A stretch of 32,553 nt of DNA from a virus (lineage: Duplodnaviria; Caudoviricetes), in the IMG/VR virus record IMGVR_UViG_3300025876_000070, positions 1 to 32,553 of that record. The stretch is one strand, 5' to 3'. Made by a program: the position numbers and the translations under genes. The notes beneath the pieces were generated by a model. That model was not told the origin of the DNA. It saw nothing but the letters and a program-made list of their open reading frames with translations, and ran no database searches. Below are positions 880-32,553 of this stretch, piece after piece. Numbering within the stretch: position 1 is the first letter of the stretch; every line of letters begins with the position of its first letter.

Positions 880-2921
880 GTAATTAGGCTACCTCCCGGT
901 CTAAATGATGACATCTTTTCTTTCATTTGTAGTTCATATTTGCGCATCTCAATAGCTAGTGCTGTTTCACGCTCTAACTTATCACGCTCAATAGCATCAG
1001 CCTGTGCTAACTTTTCACGCTCTAGCTGCATCTTGCTATCTATTTCATACTTCTTGAGTTCCATTTCTTGCTGTTTAGCTTGCGCATCAGCCTGTGCTTT
1101 AACTTGTGCATCAGTTGGTGGTGGTGGCCCATCTTCAGGCATTTCTTGTGGTGCAGGGAAATAAAGTTCTGGCGCTTTCATGCCAGCTTTCTCTGCAAAC
1201 CTAACTAATGCAGCGTGTATGCTCTGCGGTGTTGCTAATGATCCTTCTGGCGCACCGCCTTGTTGCTGTACGATTTGCGCTTGTAAGTTGATAACTTCAC
1301 GCGCTAACATAGCTTCTTGTCGCTTACCACCAGCACCAACGCCAATCTCAATAGTCATATCGTTACGTCTGCCCCACTTAGTAGGGTCTACTTGTGTCCA
1401 TTTACCTCTAAGACGTACATAATCAGCTTCTGTTGCATATTCTTTAATAAGACAATGTATACCAAGCATCATGTCTTTGATGCCGCCTTCAGCAAAGATA
1501 CGTGCCATCAATCTTGTACGCTTCTTGCCTTCAGATAGCATTGTAAGTGCACCTGATGCAGTATCGTGCAGTGTGTCAGCCTTCATACCTGTTTCACCGC
1601 GCATTATACCTGTGCGACGCTCTGCCATGACATTTGCTGTTTCTAATGCAGACAAATAATCAAAACCACTGCCAGCCAATCTTACAGGTCTTACAGCACC
1701 GCCATTGCGTGAACGTATAGGCGCACCAGGCGTATTGTTAAGCAAATCAGATATAGTGTTTTCATTTGCACCATCTTCTGACACTTCCATGCGTTGATTA
1801 AGGCTAAATGACAGTTCATCTAGCATATGACGTTGTATGCCTGTTTTTACACGCTGTACTTCAATAAGCTTGTCAGCCAATGATAAACCATAAAACCTGT
1901 GCGGCATTGGGTACGGGCAAATGCTTGAGTATTGTATATACTGCGCATCTTCTACGCTTAAAACTGTAGTGCTGTCGTAATCTGTAATTAATCGTTTTAT
2001 CTGGCCTTCAACACGTATGTAGTGCTCAAGTATTGTGACTTGCTGCATTGGCCCAATGCTGTTGCTGTAATTATCATCAATAGTATCAACATCTCTAGCA
2101 TCAGATATGGTTTCATTGTCCATAGCGTCTACATTAGTTAGGTTGTTTACTTTCTCTGGGTCATAACCTTTATCTAGCAAATCTTGTTTACGTGTTTCTA
2201 TTTGTGCAACGCAGTACGCTGCATCTCTAAGTCTTACTGTATCTCTACCAACAGCAAAACGCTCGCTTGGTATTGTTTCAACTTTAACCTGTCCTTTAGT
2301 TATCTCTTTACTAAATACAGCGTTAGTTATAATTATTTCATCTTCACCAATTTCTTCTACAACGCCATCTGTTAACTGATAACCTTGATCTAGCAAAGTC
2401 ATGTAACCAAGGCCATCTAGCTGGTCAAAGTTTTTAGTGTCTAAATACGTATCTTCTTCCCAATACCAACGAAATATACCTGTCTTTAGTAACAGCGCTT
2501 CTTTGATTCCATCATATAATATTTGAAAGCCGTTATTTTGCTCAAAGAAAACATGATTAATGTAATCTGTTTCTTGTTGTGCAGCTTCCTCATCTTCAAT
2601 ACCTACAGGCTGAAATACAGCAACATCTTCGCCTGATAGCACATCAACCAAGTCAGGCAACACTGCCTCAATGTTATCTGCTATGTCTGTGCTAACAGTC
2701 TTACTACGCTGTCCAAATACAGATACATCAAACACATCACCATTGTAATAACGCAGCGCTATTTCTCTTGATGACGTTAAATCGCTATCATGCGACATAC
2801 CAATGCTTTGTGAAAACTCAGCACGTACCATTGAAAGCAAATCATCATTGCCAGCATCATCAACACCGCTTGCAGTGTTGTTTGAATCATCTACGCCTAA
2901 ATCATTATCATATTTTAGCAT
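876..2921 (-). CDS. Portal protein (P22/SU10-like)
   Basis: ~680 aa directly after TerL. Motifs ALRYYNG, AAQQETDYINHVF, ALLLKTGI, PMPHRFYGLSLAD, ERRTG and a Q/E/K coiled-coil C-terminal barrel. Start likely at 2921 (MLKYD), just after the TerL stop. Confidence 0.9.
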   Translation of the reverse strand: MLKYDNDLGVDDSNNTASGVDDAGNDDLLSMVRAEFSQSIGMSHDSDLTSSREIALRYYNGDVFDVSVFGQRSKTVSTDIADNIEAVLPDLVDVLSGEDVAVFQPVGIEDEEAAQQETDYINHVFFEQNNGFQILYDGIKEALLLKTGIFRWYWEEDTYLDTKNFDQLDGLGYMTLLDQGYQLTDGVVEEIGEDEIIITNAVFSKEITKGQVKVETIPSERFAVGRDTVRLRDAAYCVAQIETRKQDLLDKGYDPEKVNNLTNVDAMDNETISDARDVDTIDDNYSNSIGPMQQVTILEHYIRVEGQIKRLITDYDSTTVLSVEDAQYIQYSSICPYPMPHRFYGLSLADKLIEVQRVKTGIQRHMLDELSFSLNQRMEVSEDGANENTISDLLNNTPGAPIRSRNGGAVRPVRLAGSGFDYLSALETANVMAERRTGIMRGETGMKADTLHDTASGALTMLSEGKKRTRLMARIFAEGGIKDMMLGIHCLIKEYATEADYVRLRGKWTQVDPTKWGRRNDMTIEIGVGAGGKRQEAMLAREVINLQAQIVQQQGGAPEGSLATPQSIHAALVRFAEKAGMKAPELYFPAPQEMPEDGPPPPTDAQVKAQADAQAKQQEMELKKYEIDSKMQLEREKLAQADAIERDKLERETALAIEMRKYELQMKEKMSSFRPGGSLIT

Positions 2922-2922
2922 A

Positions 2923-4239
2923 TTATATTGCACTTCCATAATTAGGCATTACCAACGGCTTTGCCTTTTTTATTTTAAATTTATCTGACATCAGCGCCAT
3001 TAAACCAAAGCTGTCAGCATCATGTGATGACCAATCGTGATTTGGGCCTAATCCTACATCTCTACTATCTGATGGTCTTTTTTCGTGATACCATCCTAAT
3101 GCAGCACGCCCAGCTTCTGTTTTATCTTTTACAAACTTACATTTAGGCAGTATGCGTCTTACAGCTTCAACACGTTGCATTGCTGCGCCTTTGCCTTGGT
3201 TTGGTAATGGTTTTAACACCTCAAATCCACCATCTCTCCAGTGATCTTCTACTCTTTTACCTGTCCAACTATTTTCATTTACACCATCATGCGGCAGTTG
3301 CATTATAGCGTGAGGCCATCGTCTACGCATCTCATTGATGTGATAACTTAGCACCTGACCTTGTGCTATGTAATGATCCAGCACGTTTATCCAATCACCT
3401 ACAAATTGCGCTAACCAAATAGTATAACTATCAGCTTTAGCACCAGAGCCACCAATATCGTGAAAACCATAAACAGGTAGTGCTGGGTCGATTGGTAACA
3501 TATCAACTATACGGCCTTCACGTTTAGCGTTAGCTAGTAACTTACTAAAATACGCACCTTCATGCACACTGGCATAGTCGCCTTCCCATATCCATTCATA
3601 ACTGTCTGGTCGTTTTTCTTGATCTTCTAATCTTTGGCTAGCTAACCGGGTTCTGTTAAACCAAGGATTATCTTTCCAATTCATTTCAACTATTTTACTG
3701 CCAGCTGGCGGTGTTAGTCTAAAACGCCTATCTGTTGCGCTGTTCTTACGTTCCGGGTTCCATGTTACCCATACTTCAGAATCTACTTCACGTATTGTTG
3801 GCAGCAACTTAGCCCATGCTAATTCACTAACAGGTTCAGCCTCATCTACCCAGCACAGCATTATACGCGCTTTTGACTTAATGCTTTCAAGGTTATGCCT
3901 TAGTCCAGCAAACGTGTAATCTATTCTACCGGGCAAATGGTCTGCTGTTCTTACATACTTTTCGCCAACATCATAACAGCTAGTTAGCCATTCGTTACCA
4001 AGTATTGCAGCTTTTACTTCTGCTAGTGATGAATCATCAAGTGAGTTTAAGTGCTCCCGGCAACACAGTATCTGTCCGCTATTACCTTCACTAGCCCAAA
4101 TAGCACCCCTAACCGCACTCATCATAGCAAAGCTGCGTGTTTTAGCACTACCTCTGCCGCCATAAGCACCGCGCACTTCTGCGTCACCTTCAAATACAGG
4201 TATTAGTTTTGCTGGTAACTCTAAGTTAAGTGTCGTCAT
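2923..4239 (-). CDS. terL: Terminase large subunit (PBSX/Terminase_3-like)
   Basis: Walker A YGGRGSAKT, Walker B CWVDEAE, coupling motif TWNP, NWKDNPWF, and RNase H-like nuclease with HDIG and SHDADSF. Confidence 0.95.
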   Translation of the reverse strand: MTTLNLELPAKLIPVFEGDAEVRGAYGGRGSAKTRSFAMMSAVRGAIWASEGNSGQILCCREHLNSLDDSSLAEVKAAILGNEWLTSCYDVGEKYVRTADHLPGRIDYTFAGLRHNLESIKSKARIMLCWVDEAEPVSELAWAKLLPTIREVDSEVWVTWNPERKNSATDRRFRLTPPAGSKIVEMNWKDNPWFNRTRLASQRLEDQEKRPDSYEWIWEGDYASVHEGAYFSKLLANAKREGRIVDMLPIDPALPVYGFHDIGGSGAKADSYTIWLAQFVGDWINVLDHYIAQGQVLSYHINEMRRRWPHAIMQLPHDGVNENSWTGKRVEDHWRDGGFEVLKPLPNQGKGAAMQRVEAVRRILPKCKFVKDKTEAGRAALGWYHEKRPSDSRDVGLGPNHDWSSHDADSFGLMALMSDKFKIKKAKPLVMPNYGSAI

Positions 4240-4516
4240 TATCTGGCGCTACTAACTCTATGCGTGTAACAACTTTAAATGGTTCACCGCTATCATCATT
4301 AGCCACTTGCATTGGCAGTACCTTACCTAGCAATCCCATAAATGCAGTTGGATTATCTAAGGCTCGATCTGTTAAATACTTAACCATACCATCTTCTTCA
4401 TTGCCACCAGCTCGCTGTGCAGCAGTTAATATAGCATCTTTAAGTAGTGCAGTTTGCTTATTAGGTACGCCTTTTTTGCGACCACCTGTTTTTTTACGTT
4501 TAGGCTTTTCTACCAT
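4226..4516 (-). CDS. terS: Terminase small subunit
   Basis: KTGGRKKGVPNK N-terminus, FMGLLGKVLP and RIELV C-terminus; overlaps the TerL start. Confidence 0.8.
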   Translation of the reverse strand: MVEKPKRKKTGGRKKGVPNKQTALLKDAILTAAQRAGGNEEDGMVKYLTDRALDNPTAFMGLLGKVLPMQVANDDSGEPFKVVTRIELVAPDNDDT

Positions 4517-4563
4517 GTTTCTACTTTTATCTACTTTAGACTTTCTATTATGTTTTATGGTGG

Positions 4564-4671
4564 TTAATATCTACGCTTTTTTACTGTCTTGCGTTTATAT
4601 GTGCCTTTTTTCATGCAACGTTTATTATTCTTACACGTTACCGGGGAAGTACAGGATTTACATAAAACCAT
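4564..4671 (-). CDS. 35-aa Cys-rich basic microprotein (not in the ORF track)
   Basis: MVLCKSCTSPVTCKNNKRCMKKGTYKRKTVKKRRY*, with an AGGAG SD at 4686-4682, 10 nt upstream of the ATG. Confidence 0.65.
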   Translation of the reverse strand: MVLCKSCTSPVTCKNNKRCMKKGTYKRKTVKKRRY

Positions 4672-4701
4672 TTTTTAAAAACTCCTATTATTCAAAAGCA
4701 T

Positions 4702-4757
4702 AGCAAGCCTTACTGCTGTAATGCGTACAGCTAGGAGGCGAGGCTACCTAAGTACGC
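4702..4757 (-). promoter_or_regulatory. Structured late leader: GC-rich hairpin with GGTAGC (ops-core-like), then a weak terminator-like hairpin
   Basis: Minus strand GCGTAC-TTAGG-tagcctcgcct-CCTAG-ct-GTACGC (4757-4723), then AGCAG-taagg-CTTGCT (4717-4702) followed by ATGCTTTT. Confidence 0.5.
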
Positions 4758-4775
4758 GCGGCCCGATCTAACATA

Positions 4776-4804
4776 GATTTACTATATATGGGGTTTTGTG
4801 TCAA
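4776..4804 (-). promoter_or_regulatory. Putative sigma70 late promoter
   Basis: Perfect -35 TTGACA (4804-4799), 17-nt spacer, TAAATC (4781-4776), directly after the NusG-like gene. Confidence 0.6.
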
Positions 4805-4829
4805 TATAGCAACACATATTGTGTTTATA

Positions 4830-5387
4830 TCACACTTTTATACTATCAATCATGGCTGTTACCTTCCGGGTACTAGACAAAAACTCCATCAATAAATCAA
4901 TCTGGTCGTTCATTTGCCTGTCTACTGTTAGGTCTATGCCTTGCAATGGCCCAGCTTTAAACCTTACCTTTTGCCCTTTAATAAATTTTGGCGCACTATA
5001 GTCAATCTTGCGCTGTCTGTTTTTGCCTATGTGTACGTTAGGTATGTAGCCTGTAGGATAAGCAACACGTAATGAAGCAATAACATCATCTTTTATTTGA
5101 TATAAATCACTGTCATCTTTCATTATGATGCCATAAATATCTTTACACTTTTGTGTTGCTATAGAAAGCTTTGGCAAGTCTGTGCGTATATCTATCTTGA
5201 AAAACAAATAACCTGTAAACACCGGGACTATATATGTTGTTCTTTGCCGCGCCTTTCTTTGCACATGACTTGATCTTAATATGCGTGTGTCAAAAGGTGT
5301 ATAACAGCTAATACCTTCTTTATCTAAAAAATCATGGATAGACAGCTCTCTGTTAGTTCTAGTTTTGAGTATGTGCCAGCTAGTCAT
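4830..5387 (-). CDS. NusG/RfaH-family transcription antiterminator (NGN + KOW)
   Basis: NGN motifs WHILKTRTNRE, EGISCYTP and PVFTGYLF; KOW motif FIKGQKVRFKAGPLQG; C-terminal LLMEFLSSTRKV. Start likely MTSWH at 5387. Confidence 0.85.
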   Translation of the reverse strand: MTSWHILKTRTNRELSIHDFLDKEGISCYTPFDTRILRSSHVQRKARQRTTYIVPVFTGYLFFKIDIRTDLPKLSIATQKCKDIYGIIMKDDSDLYQIKDDVIASLRVAYPTGYIPNVHIGKNRQRKIDYSAPKFIKGQKVRFKAGPLQGIDLTVDRQMNDQIDLLMEFLSSTRKVTAMIDSIKV

Positions 5388-6048
5388 TGCTTTTATCTTC
5401 AGGCACAATATCTACTTTAAAACTACAGGTCTTTTTCATGTTTAATGCCTGTCTTAATGTACCCCGGTATCTGTAACGTTTTTGTATTGTTGTTGCTTTA
5501 CCTGACATATGCAGCCAAGCATCACCGCTTGTTGTCCTTAAGTAAAAACCTTTACCGGGTTTTGCGAACGATGCTGTGACTAGATTATCTTCTAACTCAG
5601 TAACTGTATTAAAACCTAGCCTTTTGATAAACTTATCAGTCCATTCAATATTTACCACATTGTTGTGTTTGTTACGTTTAGGAAAACTTGTAGGGCTATA
5701 CTTTCTCATTTTTACAAAAGTCTTGTCGCCCATCTTAAGCGTTTTTATTATAGCAGCAACAGCGTAGCCATCATGCCAGAGATTGCTCGCTTTATATATA
5801 GTCACAGGGTCTTTATAACGTGTGATCTGCATAGGCTTTGCTGCCACTAATTTTATTTTTTTATTTTTAGGTCTGTGCATCTGACCATATCCGCGTTTTG
5901 GTAATATATGCCTGTTTCTATATGCAAACAGTTGTAACGCATGATAAGTACAGCCTAATCTTTCAGCAATTTGATGTGTGTTTAATTCTGCATTAGCCCA
6001 TAACTTAGCAGCTAACTCTTTTTTACTATCTGACCAATGCTTTGCCAT
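5380..6048 (-). CDS. GcrA-like / tandem HTH regulator
   Basis: N-terminus WSDSKKELAAKLWANAELNTHQIAERLG resembles the GcrA N-terminal pattern W-x8-LW-x-GLSASQIA-x2-LG. A second degenerate copy reads NLWHDGYAVAAIIKTL. Confidence 0.55.
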   Translation of the reverse strand: MAKHWSDSKKELAAKLWANAELNTHQIAERLGCTYHALQLFAYRNRHILPKRGYGQMHRPKNKKIKLVAAKPMQITRYKDPVTIYKASNLWHDGYAVAAIIKTLKMGDKTFVKMRKYSPTSFPKRNKHNNVVNIEWTDKFIKRLGFNTVTELEDNLVTASFAKPGKGFYLRTTSGDAWLHMSGKATTIQKRYRYRGTLRQALNMKKTCSFKVDIVPEDKSND

Positions 6049-6050
6049 TA

Positions 6051-6290
6051 TCAGTGCTGTGTTTTGTCTGCGACTTGTATGTCATTAAATGTAATATTTT
6101 CATGCAGTATATAAGCTAATATATTGGCAAAGCTTTGCGATGGTGTTTCTTCTTCACCTTCTACTGGGGCAGTAGTTGTAGCTTGCACACTAAAAACACC
6201 GCCTAGCACACTGCCGTCGTCGAGCACAACAACAGCATCATTTCCTGTAACCTCTACATACTGTATAAATCTTTTTACAGTGTTATCCAT
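6051..6290 (-). CDS. Hypothetical protein, possibly leaderless
   Basis: 79-aa acidic ORF with no SD; TTGCTT-16-TAGTCT ends 7 nt upstream of the ATG. Confidence 0.65.
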   Translation of the reverse strand: MDNTVKRFIQYVEVTGNDAVVVLDDGSVLGGVFSVQATTTAPVEGEEETPSQSFANILAYILHENITFNDIQVADKTQH

Positions 6291-6303
6291 GTGCTAAGAC
6301 TAA

Positions 6304-6414
6304 CTAAATTAAACCATAAAGCAAGATAGTTAGTATAAAAATTATTATGACTTTTTTAGCAAAATGCACCGAAAAACTATTTGTGTTATCATAACTATGC
6401 TTGCCTTTATTCAT
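6304..6414 (-). CDS. 36-aa single-TM microprotein (not in the ORF track)
   Basis: MNKGKHSYDNTNSFSVHFAKKVIIIFILTILLYGLI*; starts 2 nt after the upstream stop and fills the gap. Confidence 0.45.
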   Translation of the reverse strand: MNKGKHSYDNTNSFSVHFAKKVIIIFILTILLYGLI

Positions 6415-6416
6415 AA

Positions 6417-6671
6417 TTAATACTCTGTTTCTTCGGTTGCGTACATACCGCCAAACTGCCTATCATGTTTACGCTCTAATATCTTCCATTCTCTTTCTTG
6501 TAAACCTTCTGCATCTATCTGATCCAACACATCTTCTATCTGCTCAGTTGTCATTGTATCTAGCAATCTATACATCATGATTTCCATGTCAAAAGGCAAG
6601 TTTTCAAACTCACCATACGCATCATTGTAGTCTCTTAATTCTTTTTCTGTCATTGCTGCTGTGCTAATCAT
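6417..6671 (-). CDS. Acidic hypothetical protein
   Basis: 84-aa ORF tightly packed with its neighbours. Confidence 0.7.
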   Translation of the reverse strand: MISTAAMTEKELRDYNDAYGEFENLPFDMEIMMYRLLDTMTTEQIEDVLDQIDAEGLQEREWKILERKHDRQFGGMYATEETEY

Positions 6672-6672
6672 A

Positions 6673-6849
6673 CTAACCTACCCATACCATTGCTGTTGCT
6701 GTAAATGTTATTACAAATGTAGAAAGCACTACAAAATTACATAAATCACGTAATACTTTTTTGCCCTCTGCAAGTGCCTCTGCTTTTTCTTGTTTATCCA
6801 TTAGATCAAAATCTAAATATATAAATTCATATTCTATTTGTTTGTTCAT
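6673..6849 (-). CDS. 58-aa protein with C-terminal TM helix (not in the ORF track)
   Basis: MNKQIEYEFIYLDFDLMDKQEKAEALAEGKKVLRDLCNFVVLSTFVITFTATAMVWVG*; RBS AAAGGATTAAAA-ATG. Confidence 0.7.
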   Translation of the reverse strand: MNKQIEYEFIYLDFDLMDKQEKAEALAEGKKVLRDLCNFVVLSTFVITFTATAMVWVG

Positions 6850-6887
6850 TTTTAATCCTTTATTTTAAAAGCTTGTTTGCCAAGTGT

Positions 6888-6907
6888 TTAGGGGCTTACG
6901 CCACTAA
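6888..6907 (-). terminator. GNRA-tetraloop hairpin after the YodL-like gene
   Basis: TTAGTGGC-GTAA-GCCCCTAA with one mismatch and no clear U-tract; a stability or pause hairpin, or a weak terminator. Confidence 0.35.
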
Positions 6908-6911
6908 TGTT

Positions 6912-7241
6912 TTAGTTAATGTTAATTTTATTAAACCCACAACTAGCTACTGCATAATATTCGCCATTCATTTTAAATATGTCGCTCGTGCTTGAGCTAG
7001 TACCCGGTCTATATCTTTTTATTAACTCTGGGTTTTGCCAATGGTTGGTGACTTCCCAAGCTTTTTCTAAATCATTAACATCAACTTCATAAACAGGCTC
7101 ATAATACGTAAAATCTTCTGCTGTAAAAGTCTTTGGTTTAAAATTAGCTCTATGTCTTACATCTGAATATTTTAAATATAACTCATTGTTACCATTTAAC
7201 TTGTTAAATATTTCTTCTTTGATTTGGTATATTGTAATCAT
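6912..7241 (-). CDS. YodL-like domain protein
   Basis: MITIYQI...YEPVYE...LEKAWEVTN...SSSTSDIF...YYAVASCGF resembles the YodL pattern IYQL...Y..VY...LE.IF..FN...SLSVSDVV...YYVD..GF. Start at 7241 with RBS AAAGGATTAAAA. Confidence 0.6.
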   Translation of the reverse strand: MITIYQIKEEIFNKLNGNNELYLKYSDVRHRANFKPKTFTAEDFTYYEPVYEVDVNDLEKAWEVTNHWQNPELIKRYRPGTSSSTSDIFKMNGEYYAVASCGFNKININ

Positions 7242-7269
7242 TTTTAATCCTTTGTTTTTGTCTATATAC

Positions 7270-7299
7270 ACAATATGGGTATTTTTTTTACATAATCAA
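7270..7299 (-). promoter_or_regulatory. Putative promoter for the YodL-like cassette
   Basis: TTGATT (7299-7294), 18-nt spacer, TATTGT (7275-7270). Confidence 0.4.
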
Positions 7300-7502
7300 G
7301 TGTTAAATGTATTTTTTTTACGTTTAATCTCAAAATCCTTCAGCTTCCGTATCTCTTGCGCCTTTAATTTATTAAATGACGTACCGCACCGGGCTAATGT
7401 TGAGCTAACGCTCTGAGGGGTAGTGTTACAAGCAAACGCTATTTGCTTTAAGCTAAACCAAGGCGTTCTATAAACTTCTTCATGTATTTTGTTAATAAGC
7501 AT
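7296..7502 (-). CDS. Small basic HTH-like protein
   Basis: SLKQIAFACNTTPQSVSSTLAR fits an HTH pattern; TAATG coupling to the MTase stop. Confidence 0.6.
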   Translation of the reverse strand: MLINKIHEEVYRTPWFSLKQIAFACNTTPQSVSSTLARCGTSFNKLKAQEIRKLKDFEIKRKKNTFNT

Positions 7503-8215
7503 TAAAACATATCCTCTTGTTTAGGTATTATTGGTTTGCTTGGCTGTTCTACAAACATATCTGGTTGCTCATAGGCTTTTCTAATACGCTCACACGCTAT
7601 GTCGAAGTAATCGGGGTCAAGCTCTATACCTGTAAACTTTCTGCCTAATTTAACGCAAGCAACACCTGTGGTTCCGCTGCCCATGAAAGGGTCGAGGATT
7701 GTTTCGGCGTTTTCTGGTAAGTGCTTTATACACCACTCCATAACTCCGACAGGTTTTTGTGTAAGGTGAACACGCTTTACACCGCGCTCAACACCCTTTC
7801 TTAAAAACCCTGACCACTGCCAAGTAATCATCCGAACAGCTTTTTTTAAATTAGTCCAAGCAAGCTCACAATCGGCAAAATCAGATTTTCCAGTCTCCTT
7901 ATTCCAAACAAGCCAGCAAGAGGATGGAGGCAAGTCAAAATAATTACCGCCAAAAATAATTTGGTTATTAGAACGATTCACCAACATATTTATTTGCTCA
8001 ACAGAGGCAGGTTCATGGTCAAAATCGCCTCCTTTATAGACTGTGCATTCTGCAAGTTTATGTCGTGATAGGTTCTTTTTTTGGCTCTCTCCAATCCCAT
8101 AAGGCGGGTCAGTAACAACAGCATCAAAATTGCCAAGCAAGGGCATGACCTCAAGGCAATCACCGAGTATTAATCGGCAATCGCCAATAGTCACATCTTT
8201 AATAATAGCCGTCAT
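7502..8215 (-). CDS. Beta-class N6A/N4C DNA methyltransferase 1
   Basis: LILGDC, catalytic TDPPY, HLTQKP and SAM-binding ILDPFMGSGTT...GIELD, with motif IV before motif I. Confidence 0.93.
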   Translation of the reverse strand: MTAIIKDVTIGDCRLILGDCLEVMPLLGNFDAVVTDPPYGIGESQKKNLSRHKLAECTVYKGGDFDHEPASVEQINMLVNRSNNQIIFGGNYFDLPPSSCWLVWNKETGKSDFADCELAWTNLKKAVRMITWQWSGFLRKGVERGVKRVHLTQKPVGVMEWCIKHLPENAETILDPFMGSGTTGVACVKLGRKFTGIELDPDYFDIACERIRKAYEQPDMFVEQPSKPIIPKQEDMF

Positions 8216-9358: not shown

Positions 9359-9382
9359 TTTGTTTTCCTTTTTTACAGTTTT

Positions 9383-9412
9383 ATTGTAATCGCATATAGA
9401 CAATTACGTCAA
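9383..9412 (-). promoter_or_regulatory. Putative promoter of the replication genes
   Basis: TTGACG (9412-9407), 18-nt spacer, TACAAT (9388-9383). Confidence 0.6.
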
Positions 9413-9425: not shown

Positions 9426-9429
9426 ATGT

Positions 9430-9504: not shown

Positions 9505-9506
9505 AT

Positions 9507-10600: not shown

Positions 10601-10631
10601 TACAAACTCCTTTTTTAAAGTACATAGCACT

Positions 10632-24304: not shown

Positions 24305-24320
24305 TGTTTTATTACCTACT

Positions 24321-25847
24321 CTACTGATCTTGCGTTGAATAGTTTACGCCACCTATGTTAGTAACGCTTGGTGTATCAATTAACGTTGGAGCATACGGCT
24401 CTACAGCACCATTTGTTTTGTCTGCTAATCCATTAAGTGCAACAATACGCGCTAATCTTTTTTCTTCAATAACATCTTCTCCATCACCGGGTACAGGGAA
24501 ATATGCTCTTGCATAACCATCTAGCTCATCTTGCCCTATGACAGCACCTGATTCATCACGCAATACAGCCTGTATCCATAATTCACGCTGCGTTTCATAT
24601 CTTCTTCTACCTTGTGACTTAAATTTACTATCATCTCCAAGTTGTAAACGTGATGCTGGGTTATATTCGCCTTCTTCTACAATTTTATCTAGTGTTTCTG
24701 TAGCTGCTAGTCCTTTATTAAAGAATTTTTTAGCGTCAAGCTCAGATGCGTTAAAGTCTTTTTTGTCAGTTTTAGCATTAGCAGCTCTTTGCTTTAGCAC
24801 TAATTCTTGCTGTCTTATGCCTTCTATAAATCCTGTACCGCGTTTTAATTCTTCAAATTTATCAAGATTTAATTGATGGTTTTCTTTTCTCGCTATAGCA
24901 GCATCTTCTAATTGTTGTTTTCTTAATTCATAATTTCTGTCACTTTCACCCACTTTTTGCTCATATTGCATTAAGAATTGTTTATTTCTTTCCTCAAATT
25001 CTTCTCTACTTAATCCCATTTGTTCAAGCTTGACATCTGACGCTACGTTTAAGCTTCGCAATTGAGCTTTAAACATTTCACCACCTTCTTCAACAAAACG
25101 CTCACCAAGTTTTCCTATTAAATCGGGTCTTGATATATATAAGTTTCTAAACTCTGGTTTTATTTGCCCAGCGTCAATCAGACCATCTACAACTGATTCA
25201 GTTTGCTCATCCTCTAATCTTGCTTGCTGTCTTTGCATATCGCCAGCACGTCTAGCTTCTATCGTTTGCATTATAGCTGCTGTTTTGTTTCTATCTCCCG
25301 GTGCAGAGAATACATCACCTAATACACCAGCAATGGCAGCTATTTTTTGCCCTTTAGTGTAACCAGGTGCATCATATCTACCCTTTAAACGCTCTTGCAA
25401 TGCCGCATTGTCTATAGTTGATTGCTCATCATCACTTAACACTCTTTGACCATCAATGTTTTGCGTAATCATTGTAGGCTCACCAAGTTGTTGCCTTGCT
25501 AGTGCAGCACCATCTTGTTCTGGTATTATATTACCAATCATGCCTTGTGCTAAACCCATGTTATTTGCAGGAGATGGAGGTGCTATATACCCCGGCTCAA
25601 CAGTTGTAGTGCGACCACCTTCACCTTTAAATGTGCCGCCACCCGGTGTTTCTAATGCCGCTATAATATCTGGGTTTGTTATAATGTCGCCTTGTCCTTT
25701 AAATCTTGGCTGCATAACAGTAGATAAATTTCTTAATGCTGGATTTAACGCAAAACCACCACCAAAGTTACTATTTGTACGCATAGGCATTTTATTGCGC
25801 CTTGGCGTACTACGCTGCTGATTCATCGTTCCTCGAAAAAATACCAT
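24321..25847 (-). CDS. Ejection protein (P22 gp20 position)
   Basis: 508 aa, Q/E-rich helical, with LRDESGAVIG...YFPVPGD motif; assigned by synteny. Confidence 0.65.
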   Translation of the reverse strand: MVFFRGTMNQQRSTPRRNKMPMRTNSNFGGGFALNPALRNLSTVMQPRFKGQGDIITNPDIIAALETPGGGTFKGEGGRTTTVEPGYIAPPSPANNMGLAQGMIGNIIPEQDGAALARQQLGEPTMITQNIDGQRVLSDDEQSTIDNAALQERLKGRYDAPGYTKGQKIAAIAGVLGDVFSAPGDRNKTAAIMQTIEARRAGDMQRQQARLEDEQTESVVDGLIDAGQIKPEFRNLYISRPDLIGKLGERFVEEGGEMFKAQLRSLNVASDVKLEQMGLSREEFEERNKQFLMQYEQKVGESDRNYELRKQQLEDAAIARKENHQLNLDKFEELKRGTGFIEGIRQQELVLKQRAANAKTDKKDFNASELDAKKFFNKGLAATETLDKIVEEGEYNPASRLQLGDDSKFKSQGRRRYETQRELWIQAVLRDESGAVIGQDELDGYARAYFPVPGDGEDVIEEKRLARIVALNGLADKTNGAVEPYAPTLIDTPSVTNIGGVNYSTQDQ

Positions 25848-25874
25848 AACTTTACCTTCTTGTCCTTATTTAGG

Positions 25875-26786
25875 CTAAATAAACATTGAGGCAACTTGCC
25901 CTGCACCAGCTATTGCTGCACCTAAACCACCACCGCTTGTTGTCTGTGTGCCTCTTGAGTCTTGTAACATTGGTGTATTGCCTAACAAACCTAACTGTAA
26001 TTGTGCGCGTCTATATGGGTCATCATATGCCATTAAATATGCTTGATATTGTGCATCTAGTTCAGCTTGTTCTTGTCCTCTTTCAAGTTGCCCTAAACTA
26101 CCGCGCATAGCTGCTTCACGCATATCAGCATCTGACATTTGCCCAGCCATATCGCCTAATAATCCTGCACCGCGTAATCTTAACTGTGCGCCACTTAGTC
26201 CAGCTTGTTGATTTGCTAAATCAGCTTGCATCTGCCTTGCAGCATCTTGCTGATACATAGCAGAAGCTTGCTGAAAACCTTGTGATCTTAAATCAGCACC
26301 TGTTCTTGCCGCTATATCACCAAAGTTTCTGTCACTTTCAGCTTGCTGTATTGCTTGCCTTGAACCACCAAACGCAGCAGACTTAGCGGCATCAGCATCA
26401 ATGCGCTCTGCGGTCTGTCCACGTTGTCTTTCTATCTCAGATAATTGTGCATCAATAACTTGCTGTTGGAATGGGTTTGTGTATGCAGACAAATCGGCAT
26501 TAGCAAAGTTCTGCGCTTGTACTTGCTCTGGCGTGTATTGTGCGCCTGTTTGTACCATACCCGTTGCATCACCTAACAAACCTCTTGTGCCTTCAGATTG
26601 TTGTAAATATGTGTTTATAGCGTCGCGCTCTAAATCATTGACTCCAGCCACTCTTTGCCCTGAATAAGGTGTAAACTCTTGGCCCATTAACTGATTTATA
26701 TTGCCACTAATAGTATTATATTGCTGTCTTGAAAACTCATCAAGGCTATTGTCTTGCGTTGTTTCTACTTTTTTCTTACCGCCCAT
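25875..26786 (-). CDS. Ejection/pilot protein (P22 gp7 position)
   Basis: MGGKKK start (TGATG coupling), Q/A-rich, YTNPFQQQVID, AFGGSRQ and a Gly-rich hydrophobic C-terminus. Confidence 0.7.
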   Translation of the reverse strand: MGGKKKVETTQDNSLDEFSRQQYNTISGNINQLMGQEFTPYSGQRVAGVNDLERDAINTYLQQSEGTRGLLGDATGMVQTGAQYTPEQVQAQNFANADLSAYTNPFQQQVIDAQLSEIERQRGQTAERIDADAAKSAAFGGSRQAIQQAESDRNFGDIAARTGADLRSQGFQQASAMYQQDAARQMQADLANQQAGLSGAQLRLRGAGLLGDMAGQMSDADMREAAMRGSLGQLERGQEQAELDAQYQAYLMAYDDPYRRAQLQLGLLGNTPMLQDSRGTQTTSGGGLGAAIAGAGQVASMFI

Positions 26787-27157
26787 CAGAGCCTCCATAT
26801 TAAGGTTTTGCCATGCTCAACAAAACCAAGTTTTTTTAATAATCTGTTCCAGCCTTTGCGGTGGTCAAATGTCATAATAAAGTCACCGCCTAAGTCTTTT
26901 ACGTGTTTTTTTGCGGCATCTACTAAAAGATAAAAGTCTTTTAAGTCACCACCATATAGCCAAACATTTAATCCAACAGTGCCATCAGACTTTTTAGCTA
27001 CTTGCGTTATTGCAGCGCTGTTATTAGCTGGCCAATACTGCGCATCATCATTAGCTACAGCCTTTACAACGTCATCAAACGTATGTTTGTGACCTGATCG
27101 CGCTAATGCGTTTACAATTTGCTCTTTATGGTTCTCTATATTCACAGAGCTGTCCAT
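26786..27157 (-). CDS. GNAT-fold virion assembly protein
   Basis: LNVWLYGGDL...RKGWNRLLKKLGF; usual position between nozzle and ejection genes. Confidence 0.6.
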   Translation of the reverse strand: MDSSVNIENHKEQIVNALARSGHKHTFDDVVKAVANDDAQYWPANNSAAITQVAKKSDGTVGLNVWLYGGDLKDFYLLVDAAKKHVKDLGGDFIMTFDHRKGWNRLLKKLGFVEHGKTLIWRL

Positions 27158-27351
27158 GTTAATACTCCAGAGTTATCAATACTTGCACTATAGCGCGTTC
27201 CGTTCGGGCTTGTAAGTATTAATCTATTACTTGCGTTTATATTTATATCTTCATTGATCTTACGTGTTTGCGTCATCTCATATGTAATATTACGACGTGT
27301 TTCTGTTTCATTGATCAGATCATATGTTGGCATTGCGTCAGGCAGTCTCAT
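27142..27351 (-). CDS. Small tail-associated protein
   Basis: MRLPDA start (ATGA overlap); RLILTSPNGTRY...IDNSGVL beta motif. Confidence 0.7.
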   Translation of the reverse strand: MRLPDAMPTYDLINETETRRNITYEMTQTRKINEDININASNRLILTSPNGTRYSASIDNSGVLTWTAL

Positions 27352-28826
27352 CGTTTGCTCCCCGGTATCACTTCTATACGCGGTATACCTAAACGCCAAT
27401 TAGTTGACTCTGCACCTACAGCTTTTACTAGCATTTGTCTGCCATGTACCCTAACAGGTACAGGCTGCTGTGTTGCCGTATAAGGGCCAAAACTACGCTC
27501 TGCGCTGTTAGGGTATATCTTAGTCTTAAAAGTCATGCTCACGTCGCCCTGTGCGCTTTCATCAGGGTATATAAACGTCACATTTGCTGTAGTTTCACCA
27601 ACACCAAGCTCAACAGGCCCATGCTCAATAAAACTAACATCGCCATTGTGATCATAACCAAATTCATGGTCATATATCTTACCAGTAGCATCTACAGCTA
27701 TTGGATATGGTAATGGCGCTTTGTCTGTCGCGCATAGTCGCGATAAACTGCCTTTATTCCAATGTCCTTCTCTGTAGTCATAAACCACATATTTGTCATT
27801 TTCAGTGCTATCAGCACTAGGGTAAAACCACCAAACTTCACCAAATGATGCGTTATGCCAAGCAGTAACTTTACTAATTTGCGCCCTATTAATATCTTTA
27901 AACACTGCATCATGCACATCGCATTTTATTGGTTGGCTGTAACCTGTATAAACATAAAAATTTTCATGTGACATCCAATATGCTGCGCCATCAGCCGTTG
28001 TCACCGCACCAGCAGATACTAAACCACCACCAGCATTATCTTGTGGGAATCCGTACACTAATGGCGGCCCTAGATATACAACACGCCATACATCTTTATC
28101 TGTAAAAATAAGGCTACCACCTTTTACATTGACAGCATTTAATATTGTACCAGCTGTTTGTAAGCTAAAATTACCAGCTTGGTTGTTAGCTGCTGCTGTC
28201 CATTGGTTTCTATCTTCTTGATCTGACCAAGCAACATCTCTTGGCACTCCTGCTGCGCCAAGGCACATTACAATACGTTCTGGCGTTACCAATACAGCTC
28301 TATTATCTACAGGCGCATTTGTTACTTGTGTGGCATCAACATTGACGTTTACATTCCATTCGTACAGTTTGCCGTCATCAGGCAATACACCTAACAATAT
28401 CTGACCAAAAGTATCTAGTGACCATATACTTGCAGGGTTTGTAGTGCTCACCACAGCTGGGTTACTAACTCCATACGGCCCTTGTCCATATAAACCTGTA
28501 CCAAATCCAGCACCTGTGTCTGCATCTGCACGCCCGGCAGTTAATCCGCTAGGCGTAATATCTGTTACAGCACCGCCAGCTGTCATAGCATATAAATGGC
28601 TATTTGTTCCTATCGCAGCCCATACTTGATTGTTGTTATCACGCCAAGATATAACACGTCTTGCCTTACCGCTTACAGTTGTAGTTGTTCTTTGCCTCCA
28701 GCCACCCATCGGCCCCAATGCACCAAACTGCCAACGCACAAGATTAGCATCAAAGTTACGGCCTTTAGACTGATACTCTGTTCCGTTGGTGTATACACCT
28801 GGTGGTATGTTTAATGGTACTAACAT
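27348..28826 (-). CDS. Tail nozzle / packaged-DNA stabilisation protein (P22 gp10, T7 gp12-like)
   Basis: 492 aa, beta-rich with propeller-like repeats (VAWSDQED, EVWWFYPS, YDYREGHW); follows the adaptor. Confidence 0.75.
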   Translation of the reverse strand: MLVPLNIPPGVYTNGTEYQSKGRNFDANLVRWQFGALGPMGGWRQRTTTTVSGKARRVISWRDNNNQVWAAIGTNSHLYAMTAGGAVTDITPSGLTAGRADADTGAGFGTGLYGQGPYGVSNPAVVSTTNPASIWSLDTFGQILLGVLPDDGKLYEWNVNVNVDATQVTNAPVDNRAVLVTPERIVMCLGAAGVPRDVAWSDQEDRNQWTAAANNQAGNFSLQTAGTILNAVNVKGGSLIFTDKDVWRVVYLGPPLVYGFPQDNAGGGLVSAGAVTTADGAAYWMSHENFYVYTGYSQPIKCDVHDAVFKDINRAQISKVTAWHNASFGEVWWFYPSADSTENDKYVVYDYREGHWNKGSLSRLCATDKAPLPYPIAVDATGKIYDHEFGYDHNGDVSFIEHGPVELGVGETTANVTFIYPDESAQGDVSMTFKTKIYPNSAERSFGPYTATQQPVPVRVHGRQMLVKAVGAESTNWRLGIPRIEVIPGSKR

Positions 28827-29290
28827 TAACTAAAACTCACTGTAACTGTATCTGAATTTATTACGTTGTTATCGGCATCTGTTACTTGGCATCTATAAAC
28901 AGCATTGCCTGCTGATAACGCATAATTAAAACTAAATCTTGTAGTGTACTGCGTAGGCAGTTGTGGAAACAGATTTATACTACTCACAGTGCCAGATACA
29001 TAAAACCATTGATATGTAAATGGCGCTTTACCACCTGTAACTGTTACCGCTGTGTAACCAGTGCCGGGGCTACTTGTAACGCCTGTGTAACTGCCCAGTG
29101 ATGAGTTGTATGATGTAGAGCCAGACAGTGTTGTTTGCGTTAGTGTTGCTTCAAATGCAGTAGAAACAACTTCCCATGCGCTTCCATTCCATCTCTTTAC
29201 ACCACTGTTAGGTTCCACCCACGCACTACCATTGTAATACTTAGCTGTTACCTCTGCAAATGCAGTGCCGTTATAAGTTTTAATCGCCAT
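28826..29290 (-). CDS. Tail appendage protein with Ig-like C-terminal domain
   Basis: Three YNG/WNG-SAW repeats, then VTGGKAPFTYQW...YRCQVTDA. Confidence 0.65.
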   Translation of the reverse strand: MAIKTYNGTAFAEVTAKYYNGSAWVEPNSGVKRWNGSAWEVVSTAFEATLTQTTLSGSTSYNSSLGSYTGVTSSPGTGYTAVTVTGGKAPFTYQWFYVSGTVSSINLFPQLPTQYTTRFSFNYALSAGNAVYRCQVTDADNNVINSDTVTVSFS

Positions 29291-29865
29291 TATGCCGTTG
29301 TATCAAACCAAATGTCATCTGTTAATGGGCTTGTAGGCGCTGTATTGCCTACAGTTATTGTTCTTCCATTACCGCTTGCGTGTGCTACTTTGCTATCTAA
29401 TGCAGCTTGCAGACCGCTTGTTTGCGCTATTGTTAGTGTATCATCTGCTATTGTGCCAACGCTTGTATCAAGTGTAAAATCACCTGTGCCGTCAAATGCT
29501 ATGCTGCCTGTAACAACGCCTGTTAATGTAACAGTTCTTGCAGTAGACCATTTATCCGCTGACGTTGCATTTCCTGTCAATACAGCATCAGTGCCATCTG
29601 TACCAGATTCCAGTATTTTGCTTGTACCATCACTTGCAAATACATCGCCTATAACATCACCTGTAAGATTACCAACAAATGTCGGCCCTGTTACTGTGCC
29701 TGTAAATGTAGGGCTTGCTATTGGCGCTTTAGTATTAGCTAAGTTTTCATTAGTTTTTACTTGCGCATCAATCGCTATCTGCGTGTTATTTAAATCACCG
29801 CCCCATGTGTCCTGTGCAGTATTTGGTAGGTTGTATGTCCAGCCATAGTTAGTTGTTGTAGGCAT
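29290..29865 (-). CDS. Short tail fibre / fibre-anchoring protein
   Basis: MPTTTNYGW..P...DTWGGDLN N-terminus, KAPIASPTFTG, GLQAALDSK, APTSPLTDDIWFD. Confidence 0.7.
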   Translation of the reverse strand: MPTTTNYGWTYNLPNTAQDTWGGDLNNTQIAIDAQVKTNENLANTKAPIASPTFTGTVTGPTFVGNLTGDVIGDVFASDGTSKILESGTDGTDAVLTGNATSADKWSTARTVTLTGVVTGSIAFDGTGDFTLDTSVGTIADDTLTIAQTSGLQAALDSKVAHASGNGRTITVGNTAPTSPLTDDIWFDTTA

Positions 29866-29866
29866 A

Positions 29867-30478
29867 TCAATAGTATCCCGCTGTTGCGTTTATCATTTGT
29901 GGTTTTGTTCCTGACATTCTGCGCTTGTCCTGATCATTCAATGCCCTGACAGCATCTTCAAACAAACTAGCCCAGACAGGTAATCTGCTGTCATCATTTA
30001 AAAATGGTGCAGCGTGTAATAATGTACCATACAAATATATTTGCGGTGATTTACTCAATAACCAATTTGTATCTACATCATTTACTAAAGGCGTTACTTC
30101 AGCCAAGTACCTCATAATGCCAATAGTAGCATCCGGGGGAAACGGATAAAATAATAATTTAGTGCCTTGTATGGAGTAAAATCTAGGTATGCCAGAATCA
30201 GCGCCAATGCCATCTAATGCGTTGTGTGGTACATATTGCAATGGATATTCAGAGCTTTTCATCTGTATATTACGCATCTCTAAAAAGTTTGTAGGCAATG
30301 TTGTTTGACCTACATTTATAGTAAACTCAGTGTATTCTTCCATTTCAGATACATTGACTTTGCGGTTAACGCTTTCTTCATTCATTTTAATAAAATTAGG
30401 TATTTGTGCAGTCAAATCATCACGATTTAACGTGTCATTTATAACTGTTTTTAATTCGCCTAGATTTGCAAATGCCAT
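29867..30478 (-). CDS. Head-tail adaptor (tail tubular protein A-like)
   Basis: LNRDDLTAQIPNFI, LPTNFLE, GIPRFY, TNWLL...YLYGTLLHAAPFL. Confidence 0.8.
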   Translation of the reverse strand: MAFANLGELKTVINDTLNRDDLTAQIPNFIKMNEESVNRKVNVSEMEEYTEFTINVGQTTLPTNFLEMRNIQMKSSEYPLQYVPHNALDGIGADSGIPRFYSIQGTKLLFYPFPPDATIGIMRYLAEVTPLVNDVDTNWLLSKSPQIYLYGTLLHAAPFLNDDSRLPVWASLFEDAVRALNDQDKRRMSGTKPQMINATAGYY

Positions 30479-30480
30479 AA

Positions 30481-30810
30481 CTACACCTTAAACTGCGCTA
30501 CTCGCAATGCCTGAAACTCATTACTGTTTAATTTTTCTACAACACGAGGCCAATGGTCTTCATTAAATACATCAATGCCTTCTGTTGCTTTCCAATGCTG
30601 TATTAAACCTAATGGTATTGTGCCAACTTTAACTAAATCAGCCTTACCTAGTGTGCCTTTAGCATCATACTGCTGTCTTTTATTGTCATCTAATATTTTA
30701 GTGACATCTTGTTCTGTTTTTACATACATTTCATCTGTTGCACTATCGACTGCAAGGCTATGCTTCATGCCTGTTGCTGCATCGTATGAAAATGGTTTAA
30801 AACTACTCAT
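30481..30810 (-). CDS. Hypothetical protein of the head module
   Basis: QDVTKILDDNK...VGTIP...KLNSNEF pattern, recalled from genes near SU10-type capsids. Confidence 0.7.
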   Translation of the reverse strand: MSSFKPFSYDAATGMKHSLAVDSATDEMYVKTEQDVTKILDDNKRQQYDAKGTLGKADLVKVGTIPLGLIQHWKATEGIDVFNEDHWPRVVEKLNSNEFQALRVAQFKV

Positions 30811-30811
30811 G

Positions 30812-31030
30812 TTAATCCCTTGCTACAACTAGGTCGTTATTCTCTAACAGTTTAGCCTGATTTGCGTCTGTTTTAAAGATATCGCCTTTTTTATAGCATA
30901 ACTCAGTACCATCTTCGCTTAATTTGCCTGTTCTTATTTGTGCTATGCCGCCCTTTTTAGTGACTATACACTCAACGCGATCATCTTTTACTTTGGCTTT
31001 AATTTTTGGTGCTGCTTTTGCCTTTGGCAT
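30812..31030 (-). CDS. Hypothetical protein after the MCP
   Basis: 72 aa with AGGAG SD. Confidence 0.7.
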   Translation of the reverse strand: MPKAKAAPKIKAKVKDDRVECIVTKKGGIAQIRTGKLSEDGTELCYKKGDIFKTDANQAKLLENNDLVVARD

Positions 31031-31050
31031 ATCTTTCTCCTGTATATGTA

Positions 31051-31072
31051 GGGGCTAGCATATGCCAGCCCC
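31051..31072 (-). terminator. Hairpin downstream of the MCP
   Basis: GGGGCTGGC-ATAT-GCTAGCCCC (one G-U pair on the minus strand), with no U-tract. Confidence 0.5.
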
Positions 31073-31088
31073 CGGTGTTTACCTAATA

Positions 31089-32048
31089 CTAGGTTAAGTC
31101 TGCGGCCACGCCTAGACCTTTTTCGTTTTTCACGATAAGTGTCATATCACCAAGGATTTGACCTTTTTCGTTGTCACCAGTTTTGGATAGTTCTTCATAA
31201 CGTGGTGAACGTAATGTGCCTAGTGTACACATGGATGGGTCTACAAATAGAGCATCGCGTGTTAGGCCATACTGTACTGGTATTATAGTTAGTTTGCCGT
31301 GGTTAGACAGATAAACGTCTGCACCGCCAACAACTACGCCTTCATCCATTCCGTTGATTTCATAGCGGTTAGCTGCAAGTCCAGCAAATCCAGCGAATGT
31401 TGCTTTGTGAGCAGCACTCATGTAGATTTGTGAGAATGTAGCGCCATTATTAAATCCAGATTGGATTACGGCATCCATTATAGCTTTAGTGAAAGTACGC
31501 TGTGTACCATTTGTAGCGGCAGCACAATCTGTTCCGCTATATCCACCATTAGCACCACCTGTACCGCGTGACACGTTTGAAGTTGCCCATGCTAATGCAC
31601 CAGCAGCTTTACGGCCATTTGCACCTGATTCTTCAGATGAAGCGTAGTTACCAATGAAACGAGCTTCAAAGTCACGCTTTAGCTCAATACCTTTGATAAG
31701 CTTTTGTCTAGCCATTTCTGACGCTACGCCAGCTGAGTCAACAGCTTCTTGTATGCCAGCTACAACTACCGCACGCTTTTTAGTTTGTACGCGGTTAGCA
31801 ACACGTGTTCTTGTGTTAGCTTCGAATGATGTAGTATCATCACCATCAACTTGTGCTGAAGCAGCATCTGGAGTTGCTAGTGTTTCTGTTTGCCACTCAT
31901 GTCTTGTAGCCGTAACTTTTACGCCACCGCCTTTAATGTTTGAGCAGAATGGTGTTTTCTCAGGAGCAACGCGCTCAATGAGGTTTGAGAGGTCTTCTCT
32001 GTTGCCAGCAACACCTGCTGGTACGATTGTGTTTGTTGGTGCAGCCAT
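31089..32048 (-). CDS. Major capsid protein (SU10/DUF5309 family)
   Basis: GNREDLSNLI...PEKTPF, HEWQTETL, NRVQT, ELKRDFE, ELSKTGDNEK; AGGAG SD. Confidence 0.92.
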   Translation of the reverse strand: MAAPTNTIVPAGVAGNREDLSNLIERVAPEKTPFCSNIKGGGVKVTATRHEWQTETLATPDAASAQVDGDDTTSFEANTRTRVANRVQTKKRAVVVAGIQEAVDSAGVASEMARQKLIKGIELKRDFEARFIGNYASSEESGANGRKAAGALAWATSNVSRGTGGANGGYSGTDCAAATNGTQRTFTKAIMDAVIQSGFNNGATFSQIYMSAAHKATFAGFAGLAANRYEINGMDEGVVVGGADVYLSNHGKLTIIPVQYGLTRDALFVDPSMCTLGTLRSPRYEELSKTGDNEKGQILGDMTLIVKNEKGLGVAADLT

Positions 32049-32069
32049 CTTAATATCTCCTGTTGATAG

Positions 32070-32553
32070 CTAACTCGATAACAATAACGCTACAGCATCA
32101 TCTAATGAATTAGACTTGTTGAAACGCTTTGCAGCACGAGCTTTTCTTAATGAATTTGCATTGCCTGCTGATTTGCCTTTTGACTTGATTGCCTTGGGCA
32201 CAGGTTTTGCGCTAGTTTTTGAAAGCTTCTTCTGACTATCTCGGTATTTAATACCATCATAGGCCAAAGCTAACATTCCGGGTTTTGCAAATCTGAGTTC
32301 TTCAGGTGTCGCGCCAAGTGATAACAACGTCTTAGTCAATGTTTGTTGTATCTCCGGGCCTTTCACAACATCTAATAAATCTGGGAATAATTTAGGTGCA
32401 TTTGCAAAGTTTTCTTGCAATATCTGTTGTTCATATTCTTTTTGTGCAGTGACCGCAGATTCTTTATGAACCTCTAGGGCTTGCGACTCAGCTTCAAACA
32501 ACGCTTTGTTTTGCAAGTATTCAGATGGGTTTCTTTGTGACATCTCTACCCAG
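32070..32553 (-). CDS. Capsid scaffolding protein, 3' part
   Basis: In frame with 633..1 through the terminal overlap; basic C-terminus ending SLDDAVALLLSS just upstream of the MCP. Confidence 0.85.
   Translation of the reverse strand, partial: WVEMSQRNPSEYLQNKALFEAESQALEVHKESAVTAQKEYEQQILQENFANAPKLFPDLLDVVKGPEIQQTLTKTLLSLGATPEELRFAKPGMLALAYDGIKYRDSQKKLSKTSAKPVPKAIKSKGKSAGNANSLRKARAAKRFNKSNSLDDAVALLLSS
32409..32553. repeat. Terminal direct repeat, copy 2
   Basis: 144/145 identical to 1-145. Confidence 0.95.

Follow-up and report, generated by a model that had tools for sequence, protein, structure and literature searches.

The genome of a tailed phage, IMG/VR record IMGVR_UViG_3300025876_000070 (32,553 nucleotides, analysed over its full length and called the window here), contains the tetranucleotide CCGG only inside the interrupted palindrome CCSGG (CCCGG or CCGGG), and it is enriched in CCSGG and depleted of the sister word CCWGG. 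Avoidance of the neighbouring words combined with a Pro-Gly coding constraint is, almost certainly, an ordinary layer of this pattern. A second set of CCSGG sites is not forced in this way, and it is very probable that a true directional force lies behind their gain. The explanation that we favor, with a probability of roughly 0.38, is that the excess CCSGG would act as a methylated self-mark, selected for damping a methylation-sensing, DISARM-like defence.

All 41 CCGG lie within CCSGG (21 as CCCGG and 20 as CCGGG on the plus strand), with no other flanks, no CCCGGG and six CCWGG. These values agree with the manual count behind the original prediction, whose 11 example coordinates all match (CCGG starts being mixed there with 5-mer starts); its GC content of ~37% is revised to a computed 39.5%. 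CCSGG is the most over-represented 5-mer under both Markov orders tested, with 41 occurrences against 5.7 expected for an order-2 model (z 14.8) and 15.5 for the maximal-order model (z 8.5), and under the latter CCWGG is the most depleted 5-mer (6 against 34 expected). The bias also survives amino-acid-preserving shuffling, as none of 1000 genome-wide synonymous shuffles reached the observed count of CCSGG, CCWGG or other CCGG. The shuffles gave 8.3±2.6 coding CCSGG against the 40 counted, i.e. about one fifth of the observed number (these 40 counts represent 39 distinct coding sites, 27361 being counted in two overlapping open reading frames (ORFs)), together with 32.3±3.5 CCWGG against 6 and 24.1±4.3 CCGG outside CCSGG against none. 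The total of coding CCNGG is merely 1.1–1.3 times expectation. The 41 CCSGG are spread over the genome from 895 to 32358, at ~1.3 per kb and a mean gap of 790 bp; even spacing was considered and rejected, as the gaps do not differ from random (coefficient of variation 0.86, P 0.24).

Other words are purged as well, including GGWCC (0 against 15.5 in the synonymous shuffles), ACSGT (3 against 38) and CGSCG (2 against 22), and many 6-mer palindromes are at or near zero. The window thus shows what is expected of type II avoidance, i.e. palindromes depleted against a codon-preserving null. The suggestion that host restriction purged CCGG and CCWGG holds as far as their depletion resembles that of other restriction-type words; restriction itself would be the presumed cause. 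Several 6-cutters in place of a CCGG cutter are disfavored, because the ACCGGA and GCCGGA classes, with 3–6 expected per genome, are absent from 82 overlapping loci.

Because Pro-Gly is always encoded as CCN GGN and CCWGG is purged, 22 sites are forced into CCSGG. Accordingly, 22 of the 26 Pro-Gly pairs use CCC or CCG for proline, against 48 of 351 other proline codons. Pro-Gly had been proposed to explain some of the sites, which it does, with a share larger than was thought: 22 of the 41 sites are Pro-Gly, 17 are other coding sites and two are intergenic. The forced sites, assigned by codon frame, span 895..32282 and start at 895, 3929, 5555, 7003, 9240, 12400, 14101, 14277, 14433, 14856, 15072, 21313, 22719, 23787, 24252, 24487, 25297, 25591, 25642, 27361, 29064 and 32278. 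This calls for caution: once the sister word is avoided, the Pro-Gly or Gly-Pro constraint can account for about half of an apparent enrichment of this kind.

The 17 unforced coding sites span 3646..32358 (3646, 3753, 4056, 4866, 5222, 5463, 7389, 8400, 10304, 10483, 11009, 16910, 19672, 21010, 28533, 30133 and 32354), and their excess survives four nulls, so that CCSGG is enriched beyond Pro-Gly forcing, as had been claimed. Counted with overlap there are 18, against 3.5 in the synonymous shuffles. When codon, 3-mer and 4-mer terms were fitted in a pseudo-likelihood model, unforced CCSGG received log-odds of +2.6 to +2.7, and a constrained swap null, in which Pro-Gly was frozen, junction classes were kept and purged words were forbidden, gave 7.1±1.0 with a maximum of 10 in 43 samples. 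A neutral model falls short by 17 log-likelihood units and is rejected. The xCC-GGG and CGG-codon contexts show the strongest excess, and the 17 sites contain seven of the 13 CGG codons of the genome. On the coding strand they are symmetric (9 CCCGG and 9 CCGGG counts) and therefore reflect a signal at the level of DNA. Two controls behave otherwise. Within the window, unforced GGSCC is at expectation (4 against 4.6) although the absence of GGWCC forces Gly-Pro into GGSCC; and in G010, a genome of the candidate host family discussed below (172 kb coding) in which these words are likewise avoided, unforced CCSGG is depleted (39 against 160) and the Pro-Gly frame is normal.

The gain of unforced sites and a switch of the favored word among sister phages are both well supported. 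We found 39 sister loci through the capsid protein (87–100% identity), two of them near copies of the window genome; eight lack CCWGG, nine lack CCSGG and 22 carry both words. Near relatives are 85–95% identical across the virion module, yet they flip between CCSGG and CCWGG. In whole records the CCSGG/CCWGG counts are 48/0 in G001, 0/59 in G002 (100% complete), 27/27 in G003, 26/31 in G004 (97% complete) and 0/30 in G005 (74% complete). Across the 82 overlapping loci, 729 of 737 CCGG lie inside CCSGG. Under the swap null, with sister ORFs called mechanically for the frame-split counts, unforced CCSGG was raised in G001 (21 against 10.2), G003 (12 against 4.7) and G004 (12 against 6.3), and unforced CCWGG numbered 20 against 8.4±2.5 in G002, 8 against 7.1 in G003 and 9 against 4.5 in G004. 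In a separate count, G005 showed little excess (6 against 4.8). CCNGG sites lie on average 608–689 bp apart in five near-complete genomes, against 823 bp in G005, and their spacing is always random.

In a tree of 26 rows, each covering >55% of the virion module, the CCSGG clade is separate from a clade of mixed genomes in which the CCWGG-only genomes are nested (recombination was left unmodelled). Among the unforced sites of the CCSGG clade that were seen in at least four sequences, 33 of 38 are polymorphic, and the clade keeps the number of sites and not their position. With the exception of one Pro-Gly overlap, the other clade does not have CCWGG at these unforced positions. In-place conversion of unforced sites from W to S was rejected, since homologous positions differ elsewhere, the exception being a Gln/Pro switch at 13735 inside the non-CCSGG clade. 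Among more distant relatives, CCSGG was the top word in none of 26 loci of at least 7 kb; two distant relatives (L265 and L266) have no CCWGG and a mild CCSGG excess. The avoidance of CGSCG varies among the sisters (2 in the window, 0 in G003 and 13–14 in G001, G002 and G004), and ACSGT is low throughout.

A methylated self-mark would produce this pattern as follows. Unprotected CCGG and CCWGG would be removed by restriction, leaving the observed depletion, and Pro-Gly, writable only as CCNGG, supplies the 22 forced sites. As CCSGG contains CCGG, its survival would then need a methyl group on the inner C, through which the word would persist; such methylation would also cover the CCGG within. 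The writer would most likely be a C5 enzyme, either of the host or of an accessory cassette that the sisters carry and the window genome lacks. The 17 unforced sites, gained and lost at changing positions, show a directional gain that selection with a scaled advantage of ~2 per site could drive. More speculatively, the mark would be read by a host system that methylation switches off, as has been reported for DISARM, and phage DNA entering with a denser methyl mark would resemble host self. Sisters in other hosts would undergo the same process on CCWGG.

Two phage methyltransferases had been put forward as writers, MT1 (7502..8215, minus strand) and MT2 (12430..13116, plus strand, in the slot between SSB and NinB), both optional cassettes encoding beta-class N6/N4 enzymes with the motif DPPY. 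Comparison with the relatives shows that neither tracks the motif. MT2 is missing from its slot in six CCSGG-rich, CCWGG-poor sister loci (L075, L079, L081, L083, L095 and L098), and 85–91% identical MT2 occurs in seven loci of other phages with 0–2 CCSGG; the complete CCSGG-only genome G001 lacks a close copy of MT1, and an MT1-like allele is present in two CCSGG-free loci (L044 and L045). Phage-borne m4C protection of the BcnI type is therefore not supported. The catalytic motif of m4C-type enzymes is as a rule SPPY, with exceptions, and the best PDB matches of both proteins are adenine methyltransferases or unnamed, with m4C enzymes last; both look like adenine enzymes. MT1 and MT2 start with the same 11 residues, and a third allele (L045:1628-2311) with MT1 ends and a different middle is located in the MT2 slot, a relationship that suggests swapping of cassettes and target regions. 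Four family searches (PF01555, PF00145, phrog_67 and PF02086) gave no match in G002 or G004, and 26 further sister ORFs were scanned; as G002 is CCWGG-enriched and has no methyltransferase, any involvement of methylation would require a host enzyme in G002, if not more widely. G004 has a weak PAPS-reductase-like match (L067:5858-6613) in a cassette between HNH and resolvase genes.

A split C5 methyltransferase, found in many sisters between a Cro-like gene and a small ORF (e.g. L062:10324-11421; also in L316-L329, L075 and L043), is a fair candidate, and as judged from gene distribution would be a better writer for the lineage than MT1 or MT2. No C5 methyltransferase was found in the window genome, where the corresponding slot is empty (10385..10394, minus strand, between the Cro-like gene at 10385-10630 and the small ORF at 10203-10394). 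The first frame of the cassette has PCQ and ENV motifs, and the second, overlapping frame has 1–3 WPT repeats in shuffled order and a C-terminal GN motif; by analogy with multispecific phage enzymes, the repeats could be target-recognition modules. All 16 family contigs that bear the cassette are rich in CCSGG and contain CCGG in no other context, against seven CCSGG-free loci among 28 found with another gene, and the slot is empty in all three CCSGG-free sequences that span it.

The named cellular matches to the phage SSB are in Hellea, Robiginitomaculum and Litorimonas, which points to a probable host among the Maricaulaceae (Alphaproteobacteria), although this is a lead only and a guess. 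In this candidate family, MvaI/BcnI proteins occur in nine and EcoRII-C in ten of 201 genomes, as possible sources of a cognate restriction enzyme. Six Maricaulaceae loci (L236:222-1565 and L237-L241) pair a Dcm-like methyltransferase bearing a helix-turn-helix (HTH) with a 445-472-aa MvaI/BcnI-domain protein, and two of the six also have Vsr. Two of the MvaI/BcnI-domain proteins had no PADLOC profile match at 1e-10, and one had no match in a PDB search. One DISARM locus of the family, L255-L256 (G157:C30), is a complete class 1 system that carries an extra C5 methyltransferase. No CCSGG excess was seen in candidate host chromosomes (seven sequence sets) or in the SSB loci.

The support from DISARM itself comes from two sources, in which passages describe it as 'repressed by methylation' (PMC9142583) and report that plasmids with methylated motifs gained 134- and 82-fold, against 21-fold for a motif-free control (bioRxiv 2021.12.28.474362). 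Selection was further compared with a Vsr-type drive in two-codon stationary models, which are crude, with backgrounds either free or pinned. With pinned backgrounds selection was superior by 11.6, 7.7, 2.5 and 3.9 units, at a scaled advantage of 1.6–2.3; a second comparison with free backgrounds leaned to selection by 0.4–2.0 units.

Several points weigh against a selected self-mark. In the first free-background comparison selection and Vsr drive tie, at no more than 0.7 units per genome, and the models cannot separate selection from conversion of unbiased mismatches toward the methylated strand. Methylation of CCSGG is itself predicted from sequence alone, and a deamination term, as expected for m5C, was not significant. 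The xxC-CCG-G class is weakly enriched (15 against 7.7–11.3 pooled), the spacing is random and not even, and the sister genomes are not independent because they share ancestry. The C5 slot is empty in six CCSGG-bearing sequences, including the window; the cassette is present in 11 of 17 CCSGG-bearing and none of three CCSGG-free sequences (P 0.07), and eight more distant homologues lie in DNA without a CCSGG excess. DISARM cores (recognized by DrmB-size genes) were found in three of 201 family genomes, class 1 in both that were scanned, and the lead to this family relies solely on SSB similarity. The same DISARM report adds that targeting rises with unmethylated motifs and that the degree of phage protection did not follow the number of sites (excerpts of bioRxiv 2021.12.28.474362).

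The excess could instead arise from a repair or gene-conversion drive, which we consider rather unlikely, in which the word is methylated and mismatch repair favors the site-bearing strand with no gain in fitness, either by Vsr T:G repair or by HIP1-like methyl-directed repair, in heteroduplexes or after replication errors. The phage has ERF, a YqaJ exonuclease and NinB, its relatives are mosaic, and Vsr is present in 59 of the 201 candidate-family genomes, in some beside C5 methyltransferases. Transitions account for 23 of 30 one-step variants at the inner position, drive ties with selection in the first free-background comparison, and Elhai has proposed that HIP sites arise through methyl-directed repair (passage in PMC4390886). 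Dcm/Vsr very-short-patch repair would raise a CCNGG-type word through the inner C, predicting loss of CTSGG and T-to-C gains only. The loss is not seen, CTSGG neighbors being undepleted in the window (34 against 33.9) and alike between the clades. T-to-C gains alone appear less likely: the transition share equals the background (358 of 453 C-involving changes), the CGG-codon classes exceed the Vsr models (4 and 3 seen, 0.1 predicted), and site 29686 has an A/C polymorphism without a T allele (6/11). Sampled chromosomes of the host family show depletion and not gain. A base-spectrum argument against Vsr did not hold up when tested formally under free backgrounds, and all points against Vsr leave general methyl-directed conversion untouched. 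Avoidance could also suffice by itself, with purging, Pro-Gly, left-over escapes from CCGG to CCSGG and unmodelled codon context making up the excess. The 22 forced sites, the near-expected coding CCNGG total and the small class counts are in its favor, and other avoided words may depress background CGG use and so inflate the contrast. This explanation seems unlikely, however, given that the unforced excess survives four nulls, that the GGSCC control and the host chromosomes show what pure avoidance produces, and that the excess is at different positions, with a different word, in two clades.

Two further alternatives involve phage proteins. A 222-aa HTH protein (5380..6048, minus strand) had been called GcrA-like and proposed as the reader of the mark. 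It has no match in Pfam, NCBIfam or the PDB, an atlas score of 0.80 against GcrA is at chance level, and a sister allele matches GcrA at E 0.039 over 28 residues. Marked sites at promoters, as for GcrA, are not what is observed: two of the 41 CCSGG are intergenic and 39 lie inside genes, so a role as reader is not supported. More generally, this or an injected protein could bind the marked word in the service of transcription, of replication or of protecting the DNA. The HTH gene is kept in all five sisters, with three alleles whose distribution roughly matches the motif types; the intergenic site at 4641 is conserved, and an even stronger word excess is found in phage phiM5. This is nevertheless quite improbable, as most sites are coding and turn over, and the match with HTH alleles is confounded with clade and broken by L080. 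Sinorhizobium phage phiM5 (L259; MF074189, 1-44005), a cultured distant relative with a known host, contains 423 TGWCA against 113 expected (z 29), or one every 104 bp, even along the genome and mostly as YTGWCAR; with phiM5 as a case, the favoring of palindromes may be more widespread among phages. The remaining alternative, that MT1 and MT2 write m4C at CCSGG and the HTH protein reads it, has in its favor that both complete CCSGG-clade genomes have MT2 and four non-clade genomes do not; set against the empty MT2 slots within the clade, MT2 in CCSGG-poor phages, the DPPY motifs and the adenine enzymes as nearest structures, it is very improbable.

Restriction-site avoidance is described in lytic dsDNA phages (passages in PMC6286503 and PMC8410138), and the window likewise purges palindromes by synonymous change. 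Unlike plain avoidance, it favors one sub-word in unforced frames, and the sisters swap the sub-word; according to a review passage from this pair of sources, restriction-modification motifs have no reported enrichment (PMC6286503 / PMC8410138). A further likeness is to HIP1 and alternate HIPs of cyanobacteria, which are described, in part of PMC4390886, as a methyltransferase-linked palindrome over-represented genome-wide with an alternate word elsewhere. Similarly, CCSGG is over-represented throughout the window genome in several frames, with CCWGG as the alternate word in G002. Unlike HIP1, this is a phage with a 5-bp interrupted palindrome, strict avoidance of neighboring words and no candidate cognate C5 methyltransferase found in the window. 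To our knowledge there is no CCSGG-specific DISARM. Class 2 DISARM uses CCWGG and would reward marked incoming sites (passages in PMC9142583 and bioRxiv 2021.12.28.474362). BcnI (CCSGG), and PcaI (m5C CCNGG; passage in PMC8989522), recognize the same word as the window's or a superset, and select against unmethylated sites, unlike the word favored here. In part of PMC8919816, CCSGG methylation is mentioned for a marine genome that also has a matching methyltransferase, as is m4C at CCWGG in marine myoviruses. Our literature search, covering sources other than subscription papers and REBASE, turned up no account of phages enriched in CCSGG or CCWGG.

The window genome is that of a 32.4-kb tailed phage with a 145-bp near-exact terminal overlap, rated by CheckV as linear and 91% complete. 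It encodes an SU10-type portal and capsid, Terminase_3, ERF, YqaJ, SSB, NinB and the two N6/N4 methyltransferases; no integrase and no MvaI/BcnI gene were found among 43 scanned ORFs. A 974-aa protein with an ART-PolyVal domain (21380-24304) is likely injected, and the block of injected proteins is replaced in sisters. Dinucleotide skew is strong (GC 1.59, CA/TG 1.25, GA/TC 0.73, CG 0.71). The two intergenic sites are a CCGGG at 4641..4645, upstream of the late operon and present in all six aligned sister loci (one a near copy of the window genome), and a CCCGG at 31071..31075, behind the major capsid gene. The six remaining CCWGG (1726, 15901, 15911, 15916, 25363 and 28798; span 1726..28802) include three, at 1726, 25363 and 28798, that are CCSGG in most CCSGG-clade sisters and look like recent reversions or imports; the other three are clustered within 20 bp (15901-15920), which suggests a short imported tract. 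Ten of 24 listed marine metagenome runs, two of them possibly source runs, contain at least half of the sampled window words. Contigs from four runs have few variants relative to the window, one of which makes CCSGG at 3483 (two runs). A prophage or infected-cell copy was sought in GTDB, which gave three distant capsid matches only, and by a phage-SSB scan, which gave nothing useful.

Restriction words in phages are expected only to be lost, and here avoidance is combined with gain on neighboring words. We tentatively suggest, while holding it doubtful in this full form, that lytic phages may gain methylation sites as a password: sister lineages within a single marine podovirus species-group would hoard whichever CCNGG sub-word their host methylates (CCSGG, CCWGG or both), to a density near one in 650 bp, and would thereby switch off a methylation-sensing defence; some of them would import a modular split C5 methyltransferase as their own writer of the mark. 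If this is true, the hoarded word would name the host's self-mark. Should the gain instead reflect a repair drive, the virus and its relatives would offer a natural comparative series for a process like that of HIP1. If it reflects selection, genomes would bear witness to defences that methylation switches off, and phage sequence could be used to predict the methylome of the host and, down to the strain, the host range.

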